A DNA stretch of 54,858 nt, filler included, from Dirinaria sp. TL-2023a (lineage: Eukaryota), in assembly GCA_051941275.1 (NCBI GenBank). It is 4 parts of 4 records of this genome, joined end to end, with 100 filler letters (N's around TTAATTAATTAA, not from the genome) between each part and the next. Parts side by side here need not be neighbours in the genome. Positions count along the whole stretch, not along the records: positions 41,234 to 54,858 come from JAVEBF010000669.1; 3 more parts are not named here. One strand, 5' to 3'. Shown in pieces: positions 2,343 to 51,800 of this stretch; within the stretch, counting starts at the first letter, position 1; each line of letters starts with the position of its first letter. The notes beneath the pieces were generated by a model that was given only the letters and a program-made list of their open reading frames with translations, was not told the DNA's origin and made no database searches. A program made the position numbers and the translations under genes.

Positions 2343-3629
2343 AGTGCTGAGTATAATCTGACTCCTCGGTAAGGTAGGTAAGGCAAATAAGACTTTAAGA
2401 GCTAACGAGTCCGCGAGTCAAAAGATGGAAGCAGCGACTTTGCGAAGAGCAGTCACCAGCGCTTGCAGATGCTTGATGATTACTTCGAAAGGATAAAGTA
2501 GCCACCAGTCGAGATGCCAGACTTCAGTCAGTGAACTGGAAGCGCAGTGGGTCTCTGGTCCCTCAGTGCAAGGATCGGGGATTTTATCCCAGCTCTGTGG
2601 TCGAATAATACTAAACAACAAATACATCAAGTAAGGTACCGTACAATAATGAGCGAAGTGTGTATTAGATGCCAAGCCAACGCAACGCGGCTTTGCATAG
2701 CAACCGGGCCGTCAATTTGTCCGGGCGACTGAAGCACGCGATCACGTGTACGGACACAGAATTAGATAAGTAAGGTACCTTATTTTACACATCATGCAAA
2801 TGATTGGCCGTTTCATATGTTCTTATTTCCTCACGGATTCATAAGATACCTTATTTGGCTATCTCTAAAATAGAAATTGGTATTTGAGAAGAATTTCAAC
2901 CTTACAAGACTTTGAGTCTTATATCTGTGGCAACTCTCCCGAGTCGAGCGATTGCCAGTTTTTCAGGGTTGTTGATCAAGACCTCGAGTTTCAGATTTGT
3001 TACGTAACCTAAGAGGGTGAGATCATGATCAGGCCAGATTTTTTTTTTGCGATGTCTATAGAGGTCTAAGTCCAGTCTATTTCATGTTCGGAGCAACGGT
3101 GCAACAATAATGCTTACCTGCTGGAGTAGACAAGAGCAAACAGGTGTAAGTAATGCGTTCAAGTTAAAAGCCCGCAGCGATCTGAAGATAGGAAGAGCAT
3201 CTTGCTCTGTGTTCAAGATGTCAGACTTGGAGGCTGGGAGTCCAATTCGAGAATTTGCACGGTTTATTTTCAATGGCATTGCATTCGTAAACAGTGCAAC
3301 TGCGGTCCACTAATACCCTAACGCTGATCCTTTTCACCTTTGGGGCTTCCGGTTTCTCGACAAGGCTCTTGTGTAACCACACCTGCCAATCGGATTTACA
3401 TACATGTAAGGTATACTTTATGCATCCTGTATCCCAAGGCACCTTAGCTGTCTATCAATCCACGCCCCATCTCAAATCAACCTCAGCCGCGCAGCCTGAT
3501 AAATGAGCACTCAGGACATACAAGGCAATAGGTATAATGATGCAAGCAGCAAATGCTCTCACCCGTTGCACTCGATCATCCTGATGTCGAGGTTTTCGTG
3601 TCGATCTCCGATACAAACCGCCGCCCAAC

Positions 3630-6020
3630 ATGCCTTTGCCTACTCATTTCCAGCTTGCTGTCGAGCTCACTAATTCGTTCCCTGCGCGCGAGATTGCTGG
3701 TCAAGCTTACCATCGAGTCCTCGGTTTCGCTCGAGATCTGAAACGATCAGGTTCAGATCTAGTCGTCGAGGAAGATCTTGCCGCAACTTTCGGTCGGGGC
3801 CAAGTCAACAAAGAGGTCGAAAAACGCTTCAAGGCCGCTGTTCTAAGAAACACCCACCTCCACCCACTGTATCGGAATAGCGAAGTAGGCCTTGATACCA
3901 GAGCTGGTCCAACGCTCAATCGAGCCATTACCGATCCTGACCGCTATTACATGTCCACAGTGATTCAATTATCATTGCTTGGATGGGTCCATGGTCGGAA
4001 TGGTCTGGCCTCGACCTTGGCTGAGTGTATGAATAAACGCTTCGAGATGCAGTTGCCCGAAGCTAGGCCAACGCCTGGATACGAAGGAATCTTTGGTATG
4101 CTGGAAGCGTGCAGCTCGCAGACCAGCGATTTCAATTGGAGCAATTATTTAATGTCTGTGGAGGCGCGACTTGGACCAGGCTGTATAAACAACGACAGGC
4201 GTTCTGTGTATCTTCGTCTGAAGCCAGAGACATTGCTGGCGACGATGGATTACTTCTACATTACTCAAAAGTTTCCTGAGGACCGGCAGATCATCTTTGG
4301 GCATTATGAAGGAATCTTGACCATTATTACTTGGGCATATCATGTCCTTGATTTGACAGTCCTTGTCAAAGGAGCTCCGGGTGGAGATGTGATATTTGGC
4401 AAAAGAATTCATTTCCCACAAGTCATTATTGTGTGGAGCCCGTATCAGGACGAACAGTGGCAGGAAGTTTGCCTCCTCGACAAGAACTCAGAAGTTGTCT
4501 TAAGAACAGAAAAAGACGAAATGACTTTCACATGTCTCGAGGCACGCGAGAGACTTCCATTGCAGAACTACGGTACTATACTTCTACACAGAGAATTCAA
4601 CCGGTACGTCTCCGTCTTAAAAAATGAACCTGTACATACGGATGCTGCGCAAATGATAGTGGCCATGGCTATCGTAGATTCGAGGAAATTGCTTCGTACC
4701 GCTCCCTATGAGAATGTGACCTTCTCTCCATTGAGGATAGAGCGATGGCGAATCATCAATTTTGCCGGCATCATCTTCCAAGACTTGACTTTAGACATAA
4801 GGGCTGTTGATGCATTCGCTGATGTTCTGATCAACGATGAGGACTATGCACGTGGAGGACCTTTGCCCAGATCACTCGAGCTACATTTAGAAAAGACCAA
4901 ACGATGGACGCAGGGTATACCTAGCAGCTGTCTTGGCTTGCTCCGCAGACTTGCTCGTCTCACTCTGGTCTTTAGTAATGTTGCAGGCGTAGAAGATAGC
5001 GCCAATCTTCCATTGATTGCCGATCTCAGTCATCTTGACTGGTTTGCTTCGCCTAATCTAAGTTTCGACAGCAGTGACGCAGTTCCGGAGTCAAAGTTTT
5101 TGAATCTGGCGGCTAGTATCTTACTCGGAAATCGCAGCTTCCATCAGATCAATAAAACCGATTCATCGATCGATGATCGAACGTTCCTCGTTAGTGATTA
5201 TGGCTGGAGTGTTTTCGTGAGTGCTGTTGGAGACGTAGATCCCGCATCGATTCACCCGGAGCTGCTCTATTTGAAGAAAGGTGTCCCTACAAAGCTACGC
5301 ACCGGCGAACGCAGATCGGTCATCAGAGACGCTGATCGAGATTTGTTTTCTAGCGATCAGATGTCTCTTACTCCAACATTGGCAGTAGCAGACAGAGGGA
5401 GATCCTACAATCCGCGCTCAATATACCGCTTCAAACAACGTGCAGAATACTATGCCGTGCTCAAGGACTCCTTTCAATTGAATATTCGGTTCAGCGGGGA
5501 AGAGTTACGCCCAATCAAGGACACGGATGAGGCCGTACGAGCCAGGAATGACGGCGCGGCTCGTGCCTTTTTCGAACTTCCTCTCGAAGAATCATTAGCC
5601 AGTTCATCCTCCACAGGCGAAAGGTGGCAATCCTTTACGTACACGGTGTCTTACCGGCAACTCCATCGATGTTTGTGGGACATGATCTACACCCCGCCGT
5701 GCAGTCATTCTATAGGAGCTCCAAAGGGAACACCTACACCGACAAGCCACCAGACAAGGCTGGGTTTAGGGATAGCAACGGGGAATATTTTTGGTTGGGT
5801 GGATGAACAAGACGAGGAACCTGGTAGACCCGAGGTTGGCGCCCCAGAAAGAATAATCATTCTTCTAGTCAAGGATGATCGATTAGCGAGATGGCTAGCG
5901 GTTGCCGAAGCGGCTTCCAGTCGAGCCAGGCGGACGATGTTGCGAACTCAGGAGTGCTGTGAAGATTGCGCTCTGGATGCTGTCAACCAGTTCCCGGGAA
6001 AATGGTTCCTCATCATCTGA
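3630..6020 (+). CDS. Uncharacterised 796-aa fungal protein, intronless
   Basis: Long ATG-initiated ORF with globular-like composition and a C-terminal CCEDC...WFLII motif. No recognised domain. Confidence 0.8.
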   Translation: MPLPTHFQLAVELTNSFPAREIAGQAYHRVLGFARDLKRSGSDLVVEEDLAATFGRGQVNKEVEKRFKAAVLRNTHLHPLYRNSEVGLDTRAGPTLNRAITDPDRYYMSTVIQLSLLGWVHGRNGLASTLAECMNKRFEMQLPEARPTPGYEGIFGMLEACSSQTSDFNWSNYLMSVEARLGPGCINNDRRSVYLRLKPETLLATMDYFYITQKFPEDRQIIFGHYEGILTIITWAYHVLDLTVLVKGAPGGDVIFGKRIHFPQVIIVWSPYQDEQWQEVCLLDKNSEVVLRTEKDEMTFTCLEARERLPLQNYGTILLHREFNRYVSVLKNEPVHTDAAQMIVAMAIVDSRKLLRTAPYENVTFSPLRIERWRIINFAGIIFQDLTLDIRAVDAFADVLINDEDYARGGPLPRSLELHLEKTKRWTQGIPSSCLGLLRRLARLTLVFSNVAGVEDSANLPLIADLSHLDWFASPNLSFDSSDAVPESKFLNLAASILLGNRSFHQINKTDSSIDDRTFLVSDYGWSVFVSAVGDVDPASIHPELLYLKKGVPTKLRTGERRSVIRDADRDLFSSDQMSLTPTLAVADRGRSYNPRSIYRFKQRAEYYAVLKDSFQLNIRFSGEELRPIKDTDEAVRARNDGAARAFFELPLEESLASSSSTGERWQSFTYTVSYRQLHRCLWDMIYTPPCSHSIGAPKGTPTPTSHQTRLGLGIATGNIFGWVDEQDEEPGRPEVGAPERIIILLVKDDRLARWLAVAEAASSRARRTMLRTQECCEDCALDAVNQFPGKWFLII

Positions 6021-10018: not shown

Positions 10019-12294
10019 CTATTGGCGGGGCTGACCAACATCCATGGGCTTACCGCCGTTTGTGCGCGACTGAGCTTGCGAAGAGCGGCCGATCAAGCGG
10101 CTTGCAAAGAGGCTGACTTTTGATTGCGGCTTCTTCTGCACTCCTTGATACGGCGTCAAATCAAAACCGTCGGTACGGCCCGGGGATGGCCGCGAAGCTT
10201 TCATCATCTGGGGCGGAGTTTTCAAACCAATACTCTCTCGCGTGAATCTCATGAGGCGCTGGCCAGTGGTAGGGAATTGCGAGGAGATGTGTGCGAGGTT
10301 GAGGCGCGCTTGAGAAATTCCCCGAGTAGCTGCGTTTGGATAGCGAAAGTCTGGATCGGGCGGCGACGCCAGGATCTGAGCTTCGATGGTTGCTCTCATG
10401 TCGTCATGCCAGTGACAACTCAAGTCACGGACTCGTTCTCCATTCGGTGCGTCCACGGCATAGATTGACAAGCTTCCCCCAAAAAGAATCTTTCTCAAGT
10501 TGTAGGCGAGGTCGGGGCTACCGTCAGCCATTCTCGGGCCGTCATAGGGAGGAGGGTCGAGTTGCATTCTATCGACAGGAGCTGGGTGTGCTTCAACTGG
10601 CTCTAAGGTGGAGTACTGTTCAATAGTAGACGGATATTCGAACTGCTGGTGCTGATCGCGGTCAACGGCCATTTGTTCATCCACGTATCCCTTTCCATCG
10701 ATGGGAACGGGGTATACTTCAACTGGCTCTAGCGTGGAGAATTGTTCGACAGTAGACGAATATTCGAACTCCGGTCGTTGAGCGCGGTCAGCAGCCGTTG
10801 ATTGAGCCATGTGCCCCTTTCCGTCGACGGGAGCTGGGTACACCTCAACTGGCTCTAGTGTGGAGTACTGTTCGATAACAGACGCATATTCGAACGCCTG
10901 TTGTTGATTGTGGCCAACGGTCATTGGCTCAGCCATGTACTCTTTTCCAGCTTTCTCAGCTTCTTCGTCCTCTTCAGTCTTTGTTGGATAAGACGCTTCG
11001 TCTATGTCCATGCTCTCGGTACCACGACGGAATAAGCCCTTTTCTTTGCAGGGACAATTTTCCGTTGGATCGAGAGTGCAAAGAGCAGCACACTTGCACT
11101 CTTGATCACACATGCAGGCCATCTCGGGAGCAACGCGATTGACTTTCTTAGCAGGCTCCTCGAGGTTGTAAATGCTGATATGTCGATAAGTTTTGTTCTT
11201 TGTCTCATGATACTGAGCTCGTTGTTGGTCACGGCCGCGTTCGTGAACTTCTTCTCCTTGTGCGGTATTATCGTGGTGATCAACGTGTGATGCTTGGTTT
11301 GTAGCCATGTTATTTGCTTTTGATCGCTTGCTGTGTTTGAGCGTGATTGGGATGCTTTCGTTGCTGATCCGAAGGACCTCGTGCGTTGATACAGGGTGAC
11401 TGGCAAGGAGTCGTTTGGCTCTTGTTTTCTCGAATTCTTCAAATTTAACGATGGTGCGATATTTCTCGGCCAAGCCGCCAAAAATCATGCCGCATGCCAT
11501 GTTGCGGACGTCTCGCAGGCCACATACTTTGTTAGTACCACGAGAAATCGGTAAGGTGGCCTTTGCTTCCAAGTTGCGCTTTTGTTTCACAAGTACGGCT
11601 CGATTCATGATTCCTTCGACTAAAGGATCATACAAGAACTTCTCGTGCTGTGCTAAGGTAGCCTTCCATGCACCAGCCTTGATTGGATCTGGAAGGTCCA
11701 AGCCTTTGCTATCATATTTGAAGAAGTCGTCGCCGGGATGGATGAAACCGTTCGCTAAGCGAATGTTGATCTCGTGTAGTCGTTCTTGAAGTTTGGCACA
11801 GGTGGCATAGTACAAGTCCTCGAGCTCAGCAAGGTCATTGATGTCGATAGAGGTCCAGCCCTTCGAGAAGACCTTCTCGTTTCGAAGAACGAAGAAGATA
11901 ACGTCATTGGGCCCCCATGAGAGCTTCTATTTTTCCGTTAATAAGATTGAACTGGCCTGAATATCGAATGGACTTACAGTTGGAGCAATGACTTTGCTAG
12001 CCTTGTAAAGGTGCACAGCAATGAGGCGGAGATGACAAGCAATGTACCCTTCCGGATGCTTGATTTTGCCCAAGGTCGCATAGGCGCCTTCAGCAGAAGA
12101 ACAATTAGCCTTATGTCCGAAACAGTGTGCATTGCTTACAAGCGCCACGGCATTGGTAGCATAGGCCTCGCTGTCATGGGTTGGCTATGGAGTGAAAGCT
12201 TACCTGCGAAAGAGTACTCCAGCGTCACCCCTGGCGGATACGGATCTGGCAATTTGCCGACAACACGGGCTTCAAACCCGATTGCTTTAGCCAT
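10019..12294 (-). CDS. Uncharacterised protein with Cys cluster and 42-aa tandem repeats (3 exons; introns 12088-12203, 11927-11977)
   Basis: ATG in good context (ACAATGG) at 12294. Two GTAAG...AG introns give a continuous frame into the 598-aa ORF. Confidence 0.72.
10571..10894 (-). repeat. Coding tandem repeat, 126-nt (42-aa) period, about 2.6 copies
   Basis: TCAACTGGCTCTA recurs at about 10593, 10719 and 10845. The protein shows FEYxSxxEQYSTLEPVExxPxPxD three times. Confidence 0.92.
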
Positions 12295-30275: not shown

Positions 30276-32918
30276 TCAATGACCGCTGAGGTAGCGGCTT
30301 GGGCCGGCATTGTTCTTACGGAGTTTCCTCCGATCATGGATAGTTAACTCGACCAATTCTTCGGCAAAGTTCTTCCTATCTTCTGCAGGACGTTGACTTG
30401 TGTTGAGCACGGCCATCTCGATGTCCTGGGTATGGGCCCCATGTGCATCATCAATGCTCGTGTTGGCAGTACCGAGACGTGTATTGCCGGATGGCATATG
30501 CACGAGATGCCTTGTCGAAGAATAATCGCCCGCAGGAGTCTGTCTTCTAGCCCTCCCAATAAAGGGAAACCTATGACTTCGAGTTAGGCGCTCTGAAGGT
30601 TGGTACCGATTGCTCCGATTCCAATTCCCATTCCCACTTGACGGTGGTGACAGTCTGATACTAACCATGGTTTCGCAGGCGGAGTCTGCTCGTTTGATTC
30701 GTCCGCCAAAGCCTTCGCGAACGTCCTTCGCGAATTGCTCGTTATCAGAGAAACCCAAGTATACCTTTTGTGCAGTCAGGAAGAAAGGGCACGGAATGTA
30801 TTCGAACCTCTTGTCCACATTTCCGAGACCATGAACATCCGTGATAACCCGGCAGGCGATGATATTTGCATATTCAAGCGGTTGATGATTGCTCACTTGA
30901 GGGCAAGGGGCTATCAAGCACCGGACCAACAACTTCGCTTCATCAAAGAAGCTGTCCTTAAGTTGTATTCGAAGCTTGTTCAGGGCGTCAAAAAACATGG
31001 TGCAGAACGTTTCCTCCTCGGGGTTATCTGGAGTCCATACACTGCGCATCTTGACCAAGCAGGTTGTAACCGTCATCCCATCGAATCGACTTAGGATGCC
31101 CATTTGGTCTGTGGAGAGTTTCTCTATTGGCAACCGGATGCTGGGTAGTAGGTTTTTAGCATCCTTCCGGACAAGGACATCGAACCCTCTCCGAAAGACA
31201 GGGCGTAAAGCGAAACAAGCAACATGAACGCCTGCTTCAAGAAGCGTCTCTTTACCAGCAATGCCGCGCATCTGCTCAAGTCTTGGGAGGAGTTCTCCAG
31301 TGGGGACCTCGAAGCTCTCCGCTAGATAATCGACAACATGTGCAATAGGAGCGAACCTATAGCCTATGGCAGCAAGCCTTCCCGCTTCGGATTTTTCAAT
31401 TCGACGAACGAGGAACAGAAGCTGTCCTTGGCCCATGTCGTCGTCCGGGACGTCTCCTTGTTCGCCTTGGCTAAGGTTTGAGGGTTTCCTTCGTCTGATC
31501 CATGAGAAGATCTTTTTCGCGAGACGTTTCAATACATTACTCTTGGTGACCGTGCCAGTGATGCATATGTGGCCAAATAAGATGCCCATATTGTCTGTCG
31601 TGTCATGGAAAGTGGCTGCAAGATTGCCTGCCGCAACACAGAACAGTTGCTTAAAAAACGTTGCGTAATGCTTGTTTCCATTACTGGGCCCAAAGTCCGC
31701 ATTTGTAGCTGAGGTCTTGTTTTCGGTAGCCGTTTTGACATTGTCATACATAGCAGGAAAGAACTCGTGTATTGCCGTCCAGCAATGTGTAAGGCGAAAC
31801 AACCAACAGAAGACTGGGTGACCGACGCCGAAGGGTTCATCGAATGCCTGAAGTCCAGCATATTAGCAAAGAACCTGTCGAGCAAGAAGATTCTACTTAC
31901 ATCCTCACGGTAGCAATCTGTGATCTTCTCACAGGGCAAGAGGCCATCAGGGTTGACCATGAGTCTATCTTCAGTATCAAAAGTTACGCTCGCCAAGATC
32001 ACCTCTCTTGCTCTGGTAGCAGACTGTTTCTTAGACCGCTGCCCGAGGATCGCAAATGACATCAGGACAATGCAACATCCGAGTGCCTGGAACAAGTCAG
32101 CATTCACGCCTGCGTGAAGCGAAGTTGAGACGCCACCAAACTGCAGACAATAATTACGGTGTCCTTCCGAGACAGAATGGCTGAACCTGCATGGGGTGGA
32201 ATCTTGTATTGATAGGTTGTGCCAACGCTGGCCACCCAGTGCATCCCTGATACTGCTGCCGCCAGTAGCTTTGCACAGGCAAACCGTTTTAGCCAATTAT
32301 TGGTCCAATTCGAATTGAGGTAGAAAAAGAGGCCTAAGGCGACGGTGCTTGCAGCGACAGCGATCATCGCGGCACCGACGATGTTTGCAGCGGCGTACAC
32401 TGCCTTGTAGTCGAAGATACTTACTTGGCCCAGATAATGCATTCCACAAATACCCAGGCCAACGAGGAAACCTCCAATGAGAGTTCTGAGGATACTGACC
32501 TTAGATATGCTGAAGGCAAAGAAGGCTCCAGCAATGATGGCTATTGGCATGATTAAGGATCCAGCCGTAAAGCCACCATTGTACACGATTCGCAAGCTTT
32601 TGTCGCCGTCCGCCATGATGATGGCGCAGATGCCAATGTAATGCATCGACCAGATGCCAACGGAACTCATTGTCAAAGATGCCGCGAGTAGCAGATACCT
32701 TTGCCATGTCAGCATCAATGCGTAGCCGGCAGATGGTAGTGGCAGTGGCAAGGGAGGAGTTGGTCTCACCAGTTGTATAGGCCGTGGATCGACGTTCTCC
32801 TCTGGAGGAGCTCCAGTGCTGTCCAGCATCCGATGCTACTGATCAAGTACGAGAGCACGATAAATGATGCTTCGTAATGGAAGTCAACCACCTGTCCGGC
32901 GGACGGATGGTTGTCCAT
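30276..32918 (-). CDS. MHYT-domain membrane sensor protein (4 exons; introns 32699-32769, 32087-32136, 31848-31900)
   Basis: TM helices carrying 'GIWSMHYIG', 'CGMHYLG' and 'SGMHWV'. Splicing links them in frame to the long soluble C-terminal ORF. Confidence 0.88.
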
Positions 32919-41233: not shown

Positions 41234-41344
41234 GAGTTGAAGAGATTGGCGAAGGTAGAGTGCGTCTTCTAACAGTAAGACTCAGAAAAGCAGCTCACAA
41301 CAGCGGAACAGACTCGATCTATCGAGCCCAGTCCTTGAAGAAAA

Positions 41345-41792
41345 CCGATAATAGCAACTACTTTCAGAGTAGTAGTATGCCCATCAAATATGCACAGCAT
41401 AAGGACTGTTCAAGATGGCAACTCTTACAACTCAGCACCACCGAATGGATACCAGGGCGAAGCGGTGCAGTACCCAAAATCAACATCAACAGATGACTTC
41501 GTCCGAACAAGGACAATACCAGCAGCGACCTTACGACCAAGAAACTCACAAGGGTCAACCGCAGTACAGTCAACAGCAACAGTAAGTTTCCAAGCTTTAA
41601 CAGTGATATAAACCCCTCTGAAATTCGATCTAGAATCTATGCTCAGGGATATAGTCCGTATCCTCCTCAATGAGATCAACAGCCTGCTGAAGGCGAACGT
41701 GGTCTTGAAGGGGCCATCACCGGCGCCTTAGCTGGTGGTTACGGTGGTCATCAAGCGGATCATGGGTTCCTTGGAGCCATTGGAGGTGCTGG
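41345..41792 (+). pseudogene. Degraded Gln/Tyr-rich glycine-zipper small protein
   Basis: Reads 'AEGERGLEGAITGALAGGYGGHQADHGFLGAIGGA' after an in-frame TGA at 41671-41673. The upstream Q/Y-rich part needs frameshifts. A GTAAGT...TAG intron lies at about 41582-41633. Confidence 0.6.
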
Positions 41793-42681
41793 TGAGCACA
41801 GTGAGTTAAAGATAGTATCTCTATTTATTCGATTCCATTCATGACTGTTTTCGATCTGATATTCTCTCTACTACAATCAGTGAGCTGTCTACCACTTGCT
41901 TCCCAGACCCAGGAATCCTGATTTACAGAGAACGAGCGAGAATGAAAACATAAAAATAGCAGGAATAACCTGTAAGCTTATTTAAAGCTTAGAATGAGCT
42001 TGATATTATTGCGATCCTGGAACACCATGTAGTAAGATAAGCAACCGAGTCGCTGACTTGGTTCAGTTGGTCTTCTTGGTAAGGTAATTAACTTCTTTGT
42101 TGCCGAGGGCTTTGACCTGGGTAAAACCTATCTGATCTAGAGTCAGCAGGGTCCTGGCATCATCGCGCAGATATGTCGAATTTAGAAAGATATGATGAAT
42201 TCTAGAAGGTCAATTGTATACATGATATGATCATGTAGTGAATGTGTAGATGTTTGTGAGTGATTAATCAAGGTATGTTGTCGACTCAATTCTGGTTGCG
42301 GAAGTTCAGTATTATTAGATTTAGCCTTCTGTCTTAATCACACACAAAGAGTTTTTTTTCTTTCACCACGTATGCTTTGCTGTTCCATTTCTTTGATAGT
42401 TACTGGGTATCAATATCAAAATTGGCCGACTACTTCATCCCTGCTTGCATGAACAAAAGTCGGCTGGCGGTCATTGCAAGCTCATAGTTCAGAGCACTTA
42501 TAAGATACATTGAACAAGCGCCCCCCCTTCGAAGCCCGGCTGCATTGATTTTAGTATTCGACATCTTTTATCCAAAATCCGGCAGGCTGGTATCCGCACT
42601 ACGTACGATTAAGTATATTTCTTCCGCTTCTCCGAAAGACGGACTTCTTTTCTTTCAACAAAACCACGACTTTTGTCCAAC

Positions 42682-43026
42682 ATGCTCTTCCGAAGCACCG
42701 TCGTCTCTTTCTTAGCTCTTCTTCTGGCGAGTCACGCCATGGCACTCGCCAGCGATCCCAGTCTGGAATCCCCCTCGATATCTTCCTAAGTGCTAGCAAC
42801 GCTGACGGTGTTCTCGCAGTTGACGCATGCAATGCCCCGAATAATGGCCAGAAGAAAGACAAGGACCGCTGTAGATACAGGAATGAACTAGACGGCTCAG
42901 TCTGGCATGGTCGTAAGTAACCTCAAAAAAAAAAAAAAAATTTGTACCGAAAATAGCTTGCTCATACAACAATCAGACTGTAGACCTTGGGGCGGTTTTT
43001 TGTTTTGTGAGTCGCGAGGTGACTAG
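42682..43026 (+). CDS. NFAP2-like small secreted antifungal-protein homolog, 73 aa (exons 42682-42760, 42820-42912, 42977-43026)
   Basis: Spliced product is MLFRSTVVSFLALLLASHAMA-LASDPIDACNAPNNGQKKDKDRCRYRNELDGSVWHGHCRPWGGFLFCESRGD. It has a signal peptide and CAAC-ATG context. Two introns (59 and 64 nt) keep the frame. It aligns with the recalled NFAP2 sequence. Confidence 0.8.
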
Positions 43027-44116: not shown

Positions 44117-45234
44117 ATGTACTTAACAGATTGGCTATGGCAGACAATTCTTTTCGCCAAAACGACACTGCTAATATTGAATCCTGCTCGGGCTTCAAAT
44201 CTGGGCGTACCAAACGATACAACAGCGAGCAATGACAGAGTAACCTGCGGTAATGTGCCGTACGGCCACCCACGACTCGATAGCTGCGAAAGGGCCATGG
44301 AGGCTATCCCAGATACTACAGCTCGAATTTTCACATTCGGCATTCGACCAAGAGCGTCTTTGGTTTCAGTCGTCGTTCCGTATCGATTTATGAGCCGTGA
44401 GTCGTAGAACCAATCACATGATGTCGTAGAACGGGGATCCTGCAAGTACTGATAAGAATCTAGCTGATGGTCGTTGTGCGGTCGAGATTGGATTTTCGTC
44501 CCCAACGAGTACGCTCGATCTTGCGTATCCGCATGACATCAGAGTAGCCGTAGGAAATGTCATATCGAAATGCGTGGAGGGCCGTAGCATCGGAGGAGTT
44601 GTTACAGGGTTAGGTGCGTTAGACCCAGCCAATACCGTTCATAGTCTGTCCCAGTCCCATGCAGAAGCTGACGATTCAGCAGGAGAAACGCATAAGCTGC
44701 AGGCCCAAGTGTTGCGGTATGAGCCACATGTCGGATGCTTTGAAGTACCGTCGGTCGGACCTATGCTTGTGAATCGCTGCAGAGCGCTGCTGCAACAGAT
44801 TCCTGCGTCAAATAACGTGCAAGTCTTCGGCAGCGAAGGACTTGATATTGATGTGAAGCTTCCGCTGACTTACAAAGAGTGTAAGTTAATGTCGCTTTTT
44901 GCACAGCTTCATGTCTTCGATTCTAAGACCCTTGACATTATCTGTCAGCTCAAGGAGAATGTGCAATGCGCTTCACAATGACAGACGGTCCTGTGAGATG
45001 CCAGTGGCATGATCTCTGGTCGGCAGCCGTGGCCACAACATGGATGTGCGCTTCAAAAGGCGAGGCGGGATGGGCGAATCTCTATTGTATGTGCATAGCA
45101 CTTTCAACCTCCACCCCTGATTGTCCTTGCTGACATTGCATTTAGGGCAAGATTCGGTGTTCAAGATACTGCTATACAAGCCTGTAGGGTTACGAACTTC
45201 GGCTAGCAATGCCACTGCATTAGAATCGTCCTGA
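44117..45234 (+). CDS. Putative secreted 284-aa Cys-containing protein with two tandem KP4/Ecp2-like repeats (5 exons; introns 44397-44463, 44614-44682, 44881-44948, 45087-45145)
   Basis: Four GT-AG introns with branch points give an 855-nt open frame. The duplicated pattern is C-x12/13-C...FG...P...C...C..G. The hydrophobic N-terminus is a weak signal peptide. Confidence 0.72.
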
Positions 45235-46422
45235 TTCTTGCCTCGCAAGAGAATAATGAATGGTGTATGTTTACGATCTTCAGAGCTATGCTCGACTTTC
45301 TCCTGCAATATACGTCGCTTTTGAAACACAGTTCGCGGTGTCACATCTGAGAATTCGTAACTTGTCCGATTGTATGGCTCAGTAATGGGGGAGAATCGTA
45401 GAGTTGTTCAAGTGGCGCTGTGAGCCGTCGATGATTGTCTGCATTACTGACTACATTGTAATTAAACGTAGCAGAGAGGCTCTCTGAAGATTCTTCACGG
45501 CGATAAACAGAATATCCTTTGCGGCTTGACTTACTCGCATTGCGACGAAACTCATACTATTGACGACTCGCAGAAAGACTCCTGGGATTGACCTGTTATT
45601 GTAGCAGTCTTCGCAATTTTTTTGCTAATTTTGTCCGCAGAAAATAGCTGTTTTTACTCGCCACCCCTTTCTCCTAGATACATCAAGCATGGTTAGCACG
45701 CGTATTGAAGAGATCCAAATGGAATACGGCCGAGCGTCTGGATGAAAGTATACCCTTACATGATCTTACATTTTTCCAAGGTTTGCTGCTCTGATGAACG
45801 CCAAGATATCTCAATATGTCAAACCGGGAAGGATTTTTGGGTTTGAACTGTACTTTGAACAAGAAGCAATCGTACTTCCTTACGCTATCCAATGGTTAGG
45901 TAATGAATTTTTCTCTACTCAATAATGCATGGTCGTAGTAAATGCCAATGACGATCATTCGAAGATTCACTAAATATATCCACCACGGTTGAAGACGGTT
46001 GGGACGCGGGTCGCTTATATTCAAGTCTCAAATGTATCACACGAAAGACCTACGGAGCTACGTATCTTATGTAAGGTAGGCTAAACATGGCATACCCCAA
46101 GACACATTTAAGGTTGACCTTGATGCCTCGAGATGTCTCGGGATCGTACTTACTGTCCCATCTAAGACATCTGCGAGATGCAATGAATTGCACAACCATA
46201 TGCTGCACAGCAAGGCAGTGTGCGTACTGGAGCTCACACAGCGTATCCTCGAGCCAAATGATGCCGAGTCCTCAACCCCCTGGTCCGGGACGATGTCTCT
46301 GGCCCACATCTGTTTCACTGTTCAGCGAGACCTTGAGTGATTCATAAAGAGTGTGATGGCCTCTTCGATCATGGAGCCAGCAATTTCGTCGCACGCGTCT
46401 AGAGTATTCCATAGGCTCTACT

Positions 46423-47958
46423 ATGAAGGTACTTCCGTTACTATTATCTTGCTCATTTCTTATCTTGTACCGTGGGCATGCGTCGCCATTAGCCTCCCAG
46501 ATTGGGGGATCCAATGTAACGAGGAGCGCTGGGATGGGTGTGGATGCGAGTACTGCTGCGGCGATGGAAAAAAGCGCTTCTGCAGCGCCTGATTGTCTGA
46601 ATCCACAAAAGAATCCAATCCCCGCTTGCTGGGACCAGCTCAACGTGGGCGATTATCTGCAGGATTGGTGGCAGGAGAATCAAGCGGATTGTGATCAGAA
46701 CTACGAAGGTGATGGGTTTGCATCATGTTTTCAGCAGAAAGTTGGCCGAGGAGTGCTACTCGATCAACACTGTGAGAAAATCGGAGCAGGCAACTGTGAT
46801 CGACCGGGCAACTTCAGCGCCTACAAACCACAAGAGTACTACGTTCTGATGAGCATTCATGGCGTATGGCAATGGTTCAACAACGCATTCGAAGCGTCCG
46901 GCATCGCGGATGGAACGGCAAGTGACCAGGTGGGGAAAATTGTGCAAACCATCAACCCGGCTGTCGCTCCCAAAAATGGACTTGGCATATTCCTCCAGGT
47001 TCTTACAGCCGCATTCGCTTTCATTGATCTTCCTGGAGATGTTGCTGGCGCGGCAGCAACCACGGCGGTGACAGCGCTTCAACAGGCGCCTGGCGTTGCT
47101 CACGCCATCTATGCACCGGATGGCACTTTGGGCTCGCAGATCGAGCAATGGGCCGACCTTCAGAACCAGCTAGCCACTGTCATCAAATCTTTCCAGGCCA
47201 ACGTGGCAAACGGCCTCAAAGCTGCGCAGACCAGCTATGAAGACTTCTCCGCGTTTGTAGCCAAAGGCGTTTTCATCGCAAGCGAGTCGTCGCTCAACAC
47301 ATCCACTGCGATTCTCACTGAGTACTTGTCGACCTATGTCATCTCGCAAGCGTTGAACGCCTACAACACCCAAGGCAAAGACGACAGCGCGGTGACCGGC
47401 TTCAAGGTCGAATTCACTCCTAACACCATTCCTTACAACCTGCGCACCAACGGCTCGCTGCCCACACAATACAGCAAAGTCTACAATTGCGTGAACCCGC
47501 CGGACCAATACGGTCTATGCGGCGCGTATTGGACGGATGGTACAGACGAGTACGCACTGGTCCAAGACTCCGGCCCGGCATTCCAGTATTCACAAACAGG
47601 CTCTCCGCCGCCCACTCCGAATGCCATCACCACTTTAGTCGGCAGTGGATGGACCACCGGCCAATCTCTCTTGGAGGGTGCAAAAGATTGCGCCATCTAT
47701 CAGGTCGTGACAGGGAACGATTCCACTCCGTACGTTGACCCGCAGACGCTGGTGCCAAAGTGTATCTCCAGTTTACCAGTGTATATGTGGGATCAGCCTG
47801 ACTGTATTTACTCGTGGTCGCAGACGGAAAACTGTGCGGCGCTTTTCCTCAGTCCGGATCCGGGATTCCATGCGACTCAGCAGCCTACGGGGCGGGATAG
47901 GTTCAAGCAGCCCGGATACCAAACCGCTGAAACTTATTTGGAAGGTATTGGGGTGTAA
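46423..47958 (+). CDS. Uncharacterised 511-aa secreted protein, intronless
   Basis: Signal peptide MKVLPLLLSCSFLILYRGHA-SP, a Cys-rich N-terminal module, a central helical region and a Cys-containing C-terminal region. Confidence 0.82.
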   Translation: MKVLPLLLSCSFLILYRGHASPLASQIGGSNVTRSAGMGVDASTAAAMEKSASAAPDCLNPQKNPIPACWDQLNVGDYLQDWWQENQADCDQNYEGDGFASCFQQKVGRGVLLDQHCEKIGAGNCDRPGNFSAYKPQEYYVLMSIHGVWQWFNNAFEASGIADGTASDQVGKIVQTINPAVAPKNGLGIFLQVLTAAFAFIDLPGDVAGAAATTAVTALQQAPGVAHAIYAPDGTLGSQIEQWADLQNQLATVIKSFQANVANGLKAAQTSYEDFSAFVAKGVFIASESSLNTSTAILTEYLSTYVISQALNAYNTQGKDDSAVTGFKVEFTPNTIPYNLRTNGSLPTQYSKVYNCVNPPDQYGLCGAYWTDGTDEYALVQDSGPAFQYSQTGSPPPTPNAITTLVGSGWTTGQSLLEGAKDCAIYQVVTGNDSTPYVDPQTLVPKCISSLPVYMWDQPDCIYSWSQTENCAALFLSPDPGFHATQQPTGRDRFKQPGYQTAETYLEGIGV

Positions 47959-48872: not shown

Positions 48873-51800
48873 TCAGCCTAACGGCCGGATTGGATGTGGG
48901 CCCGTCTTTCTTGAGCCGAGCCTCGAGCCAAGCTTCCCGCCGGCCCAGACCTTGATTTTGGTTCGTGTTGAGTGTAGCTTCTTATCGATTATTTTCTGGA
49001 GTGACATGACATGGACCGGATACTTGTCTCTAAAGCCCTCCAAGGTATCGAGATTCCGCTTATAGGCTTCTTTTCTATCGCTGGAATTTCCACGTAAGTC
49101 AACGTCGTAGTTTATGAATATGTCCAAGATTTGTAGCCACTTCTCTATATTAACATTCGTCTTCGCTGCAGCCTGAGCGCGATGCAGAATATGCTCCCAG
49201 ATAGGAAGCGGCTTGTACCCAGACTGATCGTTAGGGTTTGCGCCACATTCGAGAAGCAATTGAGCAGTCTCCGGACTTGGACAATCGGGATTGCTAGCCA
49301 TGTCAAGTAAAGTTATTCTTCGAATGATCCGATCAGGATCTGAGAGGTCCTCTTTGAAAAAGGTGGCGATGTAATCTGGATCTTCGGGGTGTCGAGCTTG
49401 TGCGTTGAGGACCCAAAATCTAACGTAGTGGTGAAGACCATAGAACACAGCAACGTCCGCAAAAGAGTAGAAATTATCAGAGGGGACCGTAGTATCAAGA
49501 TATTGAAACCATTGTCCGTCGAAAGGCCCAGTCCAACGTATAAGATGGCGTTGCATCACCACATTGAGGTCATTGAGGAGGTTGACTTGGGCTTCCGTAG
49601 TGAGAGATTGCGCTCGTTGTGCCAAGAGTAATGCGTGCGTTGCTGGTTCTACCAATTCGCTTTTGAAAAGGCCGTAACCCAGCGGATTACTGACGAGTCT
49701 CCCAGCAAGCTGGTATAACAGAATGATAGATCGGAGTAGTGATGTACATGGATCGAAGGGGTTAGTCACCGTATATTCTGTCATGGTACTCCAGACCTCA
49801 CTTTCTATGAAGTCTCTCGCTGTGCGATGGAGGAAAGCAACCTCCCAAGTGACTTTTGTTCGCAGGGTCGTTTCGGCATCTAGAGCATCGACTCGATTCC
49901 ATACAAAATCAGGTACCTCGAGTAAACCAGCACACCAGGTCTGTAGGCGCCGTCTCATAACGTCGCATAGAGTAGACAGATTTCTTGCTAACCATACTTC
50001 GGACACAGAGTCTACATCGACGTTAGGCTTCTCCTCTACGGCTAGAGCAAGCAGCAAAAGTGTGACTTGTGTCGTACGTTGGTTGTCGAAGCTGCGCTCG
50101 CTTTGTATGGAACGCATTGTTTGAACCATTTGGAATATCTGTGAGGTCCGACTTAGGTAAAGCTTGTCGACTTGGCCAAGCATGTGATGGTATAGGTCAA
50201 TAAGGTCGGATGGTAGAGCCCCGAGCCGAGCACGGAGGTGTGTCATTTGATCATCATTACTCAAACCATCTAACAATGATCGAACAACCAGCTTGACCCA
50301 TAAGAAGACTCCTTGGGCTTTATTACAGACCTCTTCCACAAAGTCATACTTCTGAAACGAGTCCAATTTCACGTTTTCCTGTATTCTAGGATCGGTATCC
50401 AGTTTATCAACGACGTATCGTCTAATATCTCCAGAAGTCAAGTCCTGTAGGCGGAGACCCGGGCTTTTCTTGAATGATTCTTCGAACAAGAGTAGCGGGC
50501 GGCTCGATACGCAGACTTTGATGAATCTTGAAGAATTAAGACTCCTGAGCAGCTGAATCATATGTTGGCGGTCGTCACCATCCTCATTGCCCTCGAACTC
50601 ATCAAGCCCATCTATAAACAGGCATATATTCATGGGCATATCCACTATATCAACAAGGCGTCGTAATGCATCCTGTAGCCGGGGGAGAGCCCACCACCGC
50701 CTTGGAAGATCTGACAGGTCTGTTACTGTTGGGCTTTGTAGAAAAGCATGTTCGTCCGGAAAGACCGAGGGAATAAGCTTTGGCTGGTATTGTAGGATCT
50801 GGAATAGCAGGGAGCGAAGGAGGCCCGCCTGCGATCTCTGCTCTGGAGTCCCGCTGTTCCAAAAGAAGAACGTTGCGACTAACACCGGCTTCGTTCCCGA
50901 CCACAGCGATAACACTTCTGAGGTCATTTTATGATTGTATATGTACTTCATCAATGTTGACTTTCCCGAACCAGCTTTGCCGTTGACCCAATATATGCCT
51001 CTTCCATCTCGAAGCCAATGGATAAAATTGTTCCACGGTAGATTTCGTGTTTCGTGGCGTGGTTCATCGAATATCCATTCGAATGTGCTGTGATATGCGT
51101 GTGCGACCTCGTCTTGACGGTCTTGCATAGCTGGAAAGCTGAGGCTATCAAGCAACGTTCGAGCTATCCGAGCTTCTGTTTTGTGTATAACGTCGACCGG
51201 TGGCTCATTATTGCCCGTCGATTGCAGGAATGAAGCAGATGTTGCTTGTCCTAGCCCTTTGTGTTGTACGAGATCGAGAATCATAGCCCTCGTTTGCGCT
51301 TGCTCGCTGATTATTACACCCTTTATCTCTTTTGTATGATCTTGAAGCGCTGTTGTGAAAACAGATCGGTTTAGGATCAATAGGTCGACAATGTTCTGCG
51401 CTGCGAGGTTCAGTTTGTGAAAGTTTTGAGAAGCCCGGAGAGTCTGAAGATCGATATCCCGTCTGCATTGATATTAGCATCTTGGTCCCGGAATATGGAG
51501 ATATAGCTATCAAGAGCTCTCACTTCATGGAAACCAAGATAGCTGTGTCAAGCTCCGATATGTACGCTTTCAGTCTCTTCATGAGCGCATCGAGCTCCTC
51601 TTTAGTCCACATAATCTTGATTGCCTGCCGAATACTACCCCAGACTGATGGCGGTCCTCGTTTCTTGATTGCTTCCAGTCGATCCAGTATATCCACAGCA
51701 ATCATTCTGCAGGCTTTTGAGATTTCAATGAGTCGCTTCGAGCTCTTAGACACCGATCCGCGCGAGGTTGTACGATCCACGGATTCTAAATGATCATCGA

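Follow-up and report, generated by a model that had tools for sequence, protein, structure and literature searches.

A putative four-cysteine NFAP2-type peptide gene in Dirinaria sp. TL-2023a

A small three-exon gene and its surroundings

The window, i.e., the whole stretch of 54,858 nucleotides (filler included) from Dirinaria sp. TL-2023a (GCA_051941275.1) that was analysed, consists of fungal DNA with spliced housekeeping genes, among them those for a dynein light intermediate chain, a septin and chorismate synthase. A peptide gene is located at positions 42682-43026 on the plus strand, and its three exons join to 222 nt, which correspond to 73 codons and a TAG stop codon. A three-exon model had been proposed for this gene in an earlier note on the same DNA, and reconstruction gave identical exons at 42682-42760, 42820-42912 and 42977-43026. 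The predicted mature peptide consists of 52 amino acids with four cysteines at positions 9, 23, 38 and 47, eight Lys/Arg, eight Asp/Glu and two His residues.

Exon 1 comprises the start codon, a predicted signal peptide of 21 residues (42682-42744), the codons for mature residues 1 to 5 and one further base. The predicted mature peptide starts directly after the signal peptide, with no propeptide in between; cleavage two residues further on would also be compatible with the A-x-A rule. The predicted intron 1 (42761-42819, 59 nt, phase 1) has the weak donor GTCTGG, a branch-like GCTGAC and a CAG acceptor, and its retention leads to a stop in the frame of exon 1. The dynein light intermediate chain gene of the window had been said to use the related donor GTCTGC, and this was borne out: a Leu-Gly-Gly-Ser-Pro run in that gene is interrupted by 48 nt that contain an in-frame stop. 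Exon 2 encodes C9 (42828-42830), a changed loop and C23 (42870-42872), and extends to the Gly before C38. The predicted intron 2 (42913-42976, 64 nt) lies in phase 1 in the codon preceding the third cysteine; it starts with the consensus donor GTAAGT, contains a run of 16 A, a branch-like GCTCAT and ends with the acceptor CAG. A gamma-core-type motif, G-x-C-x8-C, spans this intron (42909-43008), with C38 at 42979-42981 and C47 at 43006-43008. Exon 3 encodes a putative C-terminal hairpin and a five-residue tail with a terminal Arg-Gly-Asp (43015-43023), which is followed by the TAG stop. Such a triplet arises somewhere in the sequence in 6.6% of shuffles and is also found in two relatives; it may be of chance origin and is not taken as significant. 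A Pfam search with exon 1 and exon 2 gave no family match for either.

Several other genes and frames of the window are worth recording. Just upstream, a spliced gene at 41339-41800 (+) encodes a Gln-rich and then Gly/Ala/His-rich sequence; it carries an in-frame TGA at 41671-41673, has no evident C-terminal continuation and looks broken. Its product is reminiscent of fungal glycine-zipper/CVNH proteins at their N-terminal end. Downstream, cysteine-containing frames at 44430-45130 (+) are split by a likely intron; the part at 44430-44978 matches no Pfam family, and the locus perhaps encodes a lineage-specific secreted protein. A frame of 533 codons at 46357-47958 (+) has a signal-peptide-like start, several cysteines near the N-terminus and no Pfam family, and together with the peptide gene it forms a small patch of unassigned, probably secreted proteins. 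A gene at 48876-51473 (-) encodes a NACHT/NPHP3_N/DUF7791 protein, which is fungal NLR-like. Elsewhere in the window, a fungal gene with an MHYT signalling-repeat domain (PF03707) is found at 32107-32835 (-), and two long frames of 811 and 635 codons at 3585-6017 (+) and 10022-11926 (-) have no Pfam family at E 1e-4.

Kinship with NFAP2

The peptide had been likened to NFAP2 of Neosartorya (Aspergillus) fischeri, a class IV fungal antifungal protein (PDB 8RP9; PMC5025423, PMC10273333). The NFAP2 sequence used for this comparison is identical to that in PMC5025423 and PMC5845869, and the disulfide pattern abbcac agrees with the bridges C9-C40, C11-C15 and C23-C49 given in PMC10273333. When exon 2 alone (30 residues) was compared with 177,635 PDB sequences, NFAP2 (8rp9) was the sole match up to E 10; at E 4.3, this match can serve only as a lead. 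Relatives were collected by scanning JGI metagenomes with the DNA pattern A-C-N-x-P-N-N-x8-C-x-(F/Y), in which positions 11 and 15 were left free. The scan returned 27 loci, namely 16 NFAP2-type genes (about 11 different ones) with 50.6-67.3 bits and 11 chance matches with at most 17.8 bits. An alignment of the eleven metagenome genes and exon 2 of the window was then used as a query, which matched 159 proteins, 120 of them among the matches listed. Of these 120, 85 represent complete precursors with six cysteines, on which the counts out of 85 given here rest; 35 sequences were partial, unspliced or irregular and were dropped from these counts. The family profile was built from the 85 mature peptides, with the window sequence left out.

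Against this profile, the spliced mature peptide scores 43.2 bits, and none of the scored shuffles, 4,956 plain and 4,988 with fixed cysteines (5,000 of each were made), reaches this value, the maximum being 14.8 bits. The complete family members, which themselves built the profile, score at least 63.5 bits and are all above the window peptide. Exon 1 reaches 32.3 bits against a profile of family signal peptides, whereas none of 2,998 shuffles with a fixed Met scores as high (maximum 23.9). The encoded peptide has a hydrophobic core with a Kyte-Doolittle 9-mer mean of 3.04 and aligns to the N-termini of the family, so that both the core and the profile match predict a signal peptide of the NFAP2 type. 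Exon 3 alone matches the C-terminal family profile only weakly (6.3 bits), a score that 48 of 2,526 scored shuffles with fixed cysteines reach as well. In pairwise comparisons, the best matches of the peptide, P0055, P0105 and P0028, show 20-23 identities over 52 residues.

The gene structure points in the same direction. Intron 2 agrees in codon and phase with 16 of 16 family loci in the metagenomes (about 11 different genes), and the acceptor of intron 1, which lies 5 nt upstream of the Ala codon in the A-C-N motif, is shared with 10 of these 16 loci, the other six having no intron there; the introns of the family loci are predictions from splice signals and open frames. That the set of relatives represents the NFAP2 family follows from two comparisons with 8rp9: a profile of the exon-2 parts of the family matches it at E 3.1e-10, and the predicted model of the six-cysteine member P0105 matches it in Foldseek at E 2.5e-5. 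A wide fold search (VIA) with the P0105 model returned only 8rp9 above Z 3 (Z 6.2, rmsd 2.2, 52 aligned residues; next row 2.8). Both sequence similarity and the two intron positions thus place the gene in the family, and the homology to NFAP2 that had been claimed earlier is upheld by the profile score, the family intron positions and the family-type signal peptide; this kinship is firm. The position within the family is another matter. In a tree of 83 rows, the peptide is found on the longest branch (1.34) inside no well-supported group, and neither a sister group nor an order of events is claimed from it.

The peptide shares with NFAP2 the type of signal peptide, the length of 52 residues, the A-C-N-x-P-N-N motif, C9, C23, the G-x-C and L-x-C positions and the gamma-core; the strict GxC-x3-9-C pattern is present in the window peptide and in 64 of the 85 relatives. 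With the NFAP2 family, the gene has in common both intron positions and a basic mid-N-terminal segment. In contrast to NFAP2, the peptide is devoid of the C11-C15 bridge, His17 and Gly20 are replaced by Lys, the net charge at pH 7 is 0 instead of +5.2, with 31% charged residues, a propeptide is absent (13 residues in NFAP2), and there is a short tail ending in Arg-Gly-Asp. A similar architecture, in which the signal peptide is joined straight to the mature part, is seen in neutral or acidic six-cysteine homologues (P0076, P0103, P0105 and P0119 from Hypoxylon species, and P0082) with net charges of -3 to +1; unlike the window peptide, however, all of these keep C11 and C15.

An NFAP2-like predicted fold is not confined to fungi. 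The ESM Atlas model of P0105 overlays unnamed small bacterial domains (Atlas rows 1-5) at TM 0.67-0.70 over 42 residues; these rows comprise bacterial proteins of 92-95 residues as well as a domain of a kinase and of an ArnT-type glycosyltransferase. No sequence link between the bacterial domains and the peptide is evident, and the window gene carries the introns of the fungal family. A derivation from such domains, i.e., a horizontal origin from bacteria, is ruled out by these introns.

The missing cysteine pair and the charge of the peptide

In the alignment with the relatives, the peptide has Ala (GCC, 42834-42836) in place of Cys11 and Gly (GGC, 42846-42848) in place of Cys15. It had been stated earlier that exactly one disulfide pair is lost, and this agrees both with the alignment and with PMC10273333, according to which C11 and C15 of NFAP2 are partners. 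Both cysteines are present in all 120 relatives among the matches listed (of 159), from a search that leans towards such proteins, in all 16 metagenome loci, which were retrieved with a pattern unbiased at these positions, and, by eye, in all 35 homologues in Table S1 of PMC5025423. With four cysteines, the peptide does not show the six-cysteine abbcac pattern, and it is for this reason filed as a variant rather than as an ordinary member of the NFAP2 family. The chance that two lost cysteines are partners is 3 in 15, and the paired loss, which would fit selection against a free thiol, is modest evidence on its own. CpC or RIP-type mutation was considered as the cause and rejected: changes from TGY to GCC and GGC require transversions, and no CC depletion is found at the peptide locus, where CC/GG is undepleted (0.95).

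The remaining differences are not scattered. Of the columns conserved at 80% or more, 12 of 16 are kept, compared with 7 of 33 variable columns that match the consensus (Fisher p 0.0005). The four altered conserved positions (11, 15, 17 and 20) all fall within residues 11-20, and every conserved column outside this loop is kept. Judged from the alignment, the fold core has been held and a single loop was rebuilt. In NFAP2, the C11-C15 bridge sits in a flexible loop (PMC10273333), and since the lost pair staples such a loop, the core could plausibly fold without it. Simulations described in PMC11351017 show that region 10-20 of NFAP2 inserts into anionic bilayers; there, the C11-C15 bridge was proposed to act as a "fingertip" and to take part in pore formation, with the neighbouring lysines as electrostatic anchors. 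As all changes at conserved positions lie in loop 11-20, an altered target or mode of action, as suggested in the earlier note, is plausible.

The earlier note had also presented the loss of the cationic charge as a special trait of the peptide, and this did not hold up: K+R-D-E is zero or below in 37 of the 85 six-cysteine relatives (median +1), and NFAP2 lies at the cationic end of the family. A net cationic charge is therefore not family-defining, although the window peptide, with a net charge of 0, does lack it. Its eight Lys/Arg residues equal the family maximum, which is reached by 3 of 85 relatives, so that its basic residues have not been lost, but acidic ones have been added. The charge layout can be read directly from the gene: mature residues 13-27 (42840-42884, +) form a basic patch with six Lys/Arg and two Asp residues, i.e., a net charge of +4, which overlaps the active segment 13-23 of NFAP2 (PMC5845869). 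A net +4 in this stretch is reached by 5 of 85 relatives and exceeded by none; segment 13-23 itself has +2, and the flanks have -2 each. The charge calculated for the window peptide alone is -0.1 at pH 7 and +3.1 at pH 5, with a pI of 6.9. The peptide is the most charged of the set (31% compared with a family maximum of 27%) and the most Arg-rich (5; family maximum 4). With a GRAVY of -1.11, below the family minimum of -0.98, it is also the most hydrophilic, and its composition is unlike that of the alignment. The predicted absence of a propeptide does not distinguish the peptide either, as the part preceding the mature peptide has 22 residues or fewer in 8 of 85 relatives.

The earlier note had further postulated a four-cysteine NFAP2 subfamily. 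One four-cysteine gene was indeed seen; a second one, however, was not found by searches with exact words or exact motifs, which are weak tools for a small spliced fungal gene. A six-frame profile scan detected no second copy in the window, the next best hit (E 0.016) being an unrelated long frame. A search for proteins that share three words with the exon-2 frame gave no candidate, and the 30-residue exon 2, a weak query, gave no match at E 0.001 among 1.84 billion representatives. An alignment of the three exon pieces with P0105 yielded seven candidates and two matches, both with six cysteines. The pattern free at positions 11 and 15 retrieved no four-cysteine gene from the JGI metagenomes (all 16 true genes have six cysteines), six loci in prokaryote genomes, all of them chance matches, and none in viral contigs, and no four-cysteine member was present among the 120 matches listed of the 159 from the search for relatives. 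An ESM Atlas feature search with exon 2 returned only unnamed bacterial clusters at 0.87-0.90 and was rejected because of low recognition. No four-cysteine or lichen NFAP2 was found in a literature search that covered mainly open-access papers, and none is mentioned in the accessible parts of PMC6062912 and PMC11818080, which provide the family context. In the main text of a preprint on lichen antimicrobial proteins (10.64898/2026.09.03.749242), the term "NFAP" is absent; its supplements may hold the orthogroup of the gene.

Among the relatives, P0079 is an ordinary six-cysteine NFAP2 homologue whose name refers to a MAG of Candelaria pacifica. As this genus comprises lichens, lichen fungi may hold both kinds of NFAP2. 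Eight further six-cysteine homologues (P0050, P0054, P0056, P0082, P0090, P0104, P0111 and P0120) are named from Basidiomycota (Lentinula, Trametes, Cubamyces, Daedaleopsis and Stygiomarasmius); the homologue list of 2016, Table S1 of PMC5025423, comprises Ascomycota only.

Possible function of the peptide and its alternatives

The reading that accounts best for these observations, and to which about an even chance is given, is that of a working gene for a secreted two-disulfide NFAP2-type peptide, most likely a membrane-docking antimicrobial with an unstapled loop. The gene would have descended from a six-cysteine NFAP2-type gene and would encode a secreted peptide of 52 residues, whose beta-sheet core would be held by C9-C38 and C23-C47, the equivalents of C9-C40 and C23-C49 in NFAP2. 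The N-terminal loop would have been rebuilt, thereby losing the C11-C15 staple and becoming more charged. The peptide is envisaged to dock on anionic microbial membranes via the basic middle patch of residues 13-27, assisted by two Trp residues, while its acidic ends would balance this patch and leave no net charge at pH 7. With the hydrophobic disulfide fingertip missing, insertion would probably be weaker than that of NFAP2, leading to lower potency or another target range. Disulfide pairing, fold, secretion and membrane binding are here inferred by analogy with NFAP2.

Membrane docking is favoured because the patch at residues 13-27 tops the family range and segment 13-23 is kept basic. According to PMC5845869, the NFAP2 fragment 13-23 disrupts Candida membranes by itself and remains active if its thiols are free and even if its sequence is shuffled, which points to charge and hydrophilicity as the basis of its activity; it acts at 50 ug/ml, compared with 1.56-12.5 for the whole protein. 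On the other hand, the docking model is weakened by the proposed role of C11-C15 in pore formation (PMC11351017) and by the requirement of all bridges for full activity in fungal antifungal proteins (PMC10273333), and also because the assays in the literature surveyed cover NFAP2 only, which represents the cationic end of the family. The reading as a whole is weakened by the profile score, which is below that of all complete members, the weak first donor, the weak exon 3 and a pair loss that chance would produce in 3 of 15 cases; moreover, the searches turned up no close relative on which selection could have been measured.

Alternatively, the NFAP2 scaffold might have been reused in a non-lytic way, as a secreted ligand or signal whose target, a protein or part of the cell wall, would belong to a partner cell, which in a lichen could be the alga or a thallus microbe, with the rebuilt loop as the new binding face. 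This can be entertained only tentatively. It would explain why all four changes at conserved positions lie in the functional loop 11-20 and would suit a peptide that is the most charged, most hydrophilic and most Arg-rich of the set, of unusual composition and on the longest branch; however, the basic patch that carries the activity of NFAP2 is kept and even stronger, nothing found here points to a partner or receptor, and the terminal Arg-Gly-Asp is matched in shuffles and relatives.

A wider proposal sees in the peptide the first member to be noticed of a lineage of NFAP2 peptides with two disulfides in lichen fungi. In this lineage, a charged open loop would have taken the place of the membrane-piercing fingertip, and a scaffold for killing yeasts would have become a pH-dependent or receptor-directed tool for dealing with the photobiont or the thallus microbiome; the two-disulfide core would correspond to a minimal fold that bacterial exported domains also use. 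This proposal is rather doubtful.

A gene under relaxed selection or one that died recently is unlikely as well. In that case, decay would account for the missing staple, the drifted loop and the weak first donor, and folded peptide would be produced in small amounts at most. The donor GTCTGG, the status of the gene as a singleton and its long branch are compatible with decay, and the in-frame stop of the upstream neighbour (41671-41673) shows that the area contains at least one broken gene. However, the frame, start, stop, both introns with their branch-like sites and the even number of cysteines are intact, no conserved column outside the loop is changed, and the dynein light intermediate chain gene of the window is spliced from the similar donor GTCTGC. 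In 5,000 neutral simulations, the start, the four splice dinucleotides and the open frame together survived 0.2 changes per site in 3% of cases, which, combined with the longest branch and the kept residues, argues for long selection after divergence, as judged from the sequence. Decay that set in recently would leave fewer marks: in the same simulations, 68% of cases survived 0.02 changes per site, and 39% survived 0.05.

It is highly improbable that the gene yields a peptide in which the four cysteines pair otherwise or which is mostly unfolded, so that it would be NFAP2-derived in sequence only. NFAP2 with wrongly paired disulfides is unordered (PMC10273333), and the structural model at hand is that of a six-cysteine relative; the four cysteines, however, keep the spacing of the family as well as the surrounding strand-forming positions (Tyr25, Gly36 and Leu45). 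A chance array of short frames resembling NFAP2, which the exon-2 match at E 4.3 and chance DNA-pattern matches of up to 17.8 bits might suggest, is refuted in practice by the joint weight of three findings: the peptide scores 43.2 bits after splicing, both introns sit where family introns do, and the signal peptide is of the family type.

What is new here is a divergent gene that, by its sequence, belongs to the NFAP2 family and departs from the six-cysteine pattern at a telling place; the family itself was already known. NFAP2 has attracted study as a lead against Candida, and the window gene represents a natural deletion of exactly the C11-C15 bridge, in which the core is otherwise conserved and the basic patch is kept. 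As the bridge is absent while the patch is present, a single experiment could separate the contribution of the fingertip from that of charge, and the peptide thus offers a natural test of how NFAP2-type peptides kill. That most of the NFAP2 family is not strongly cationic also raises the question of which role the other members have. Finally, little is known about the peptides that lichen fungi secrete, and the gene supplies one concrete candidate.
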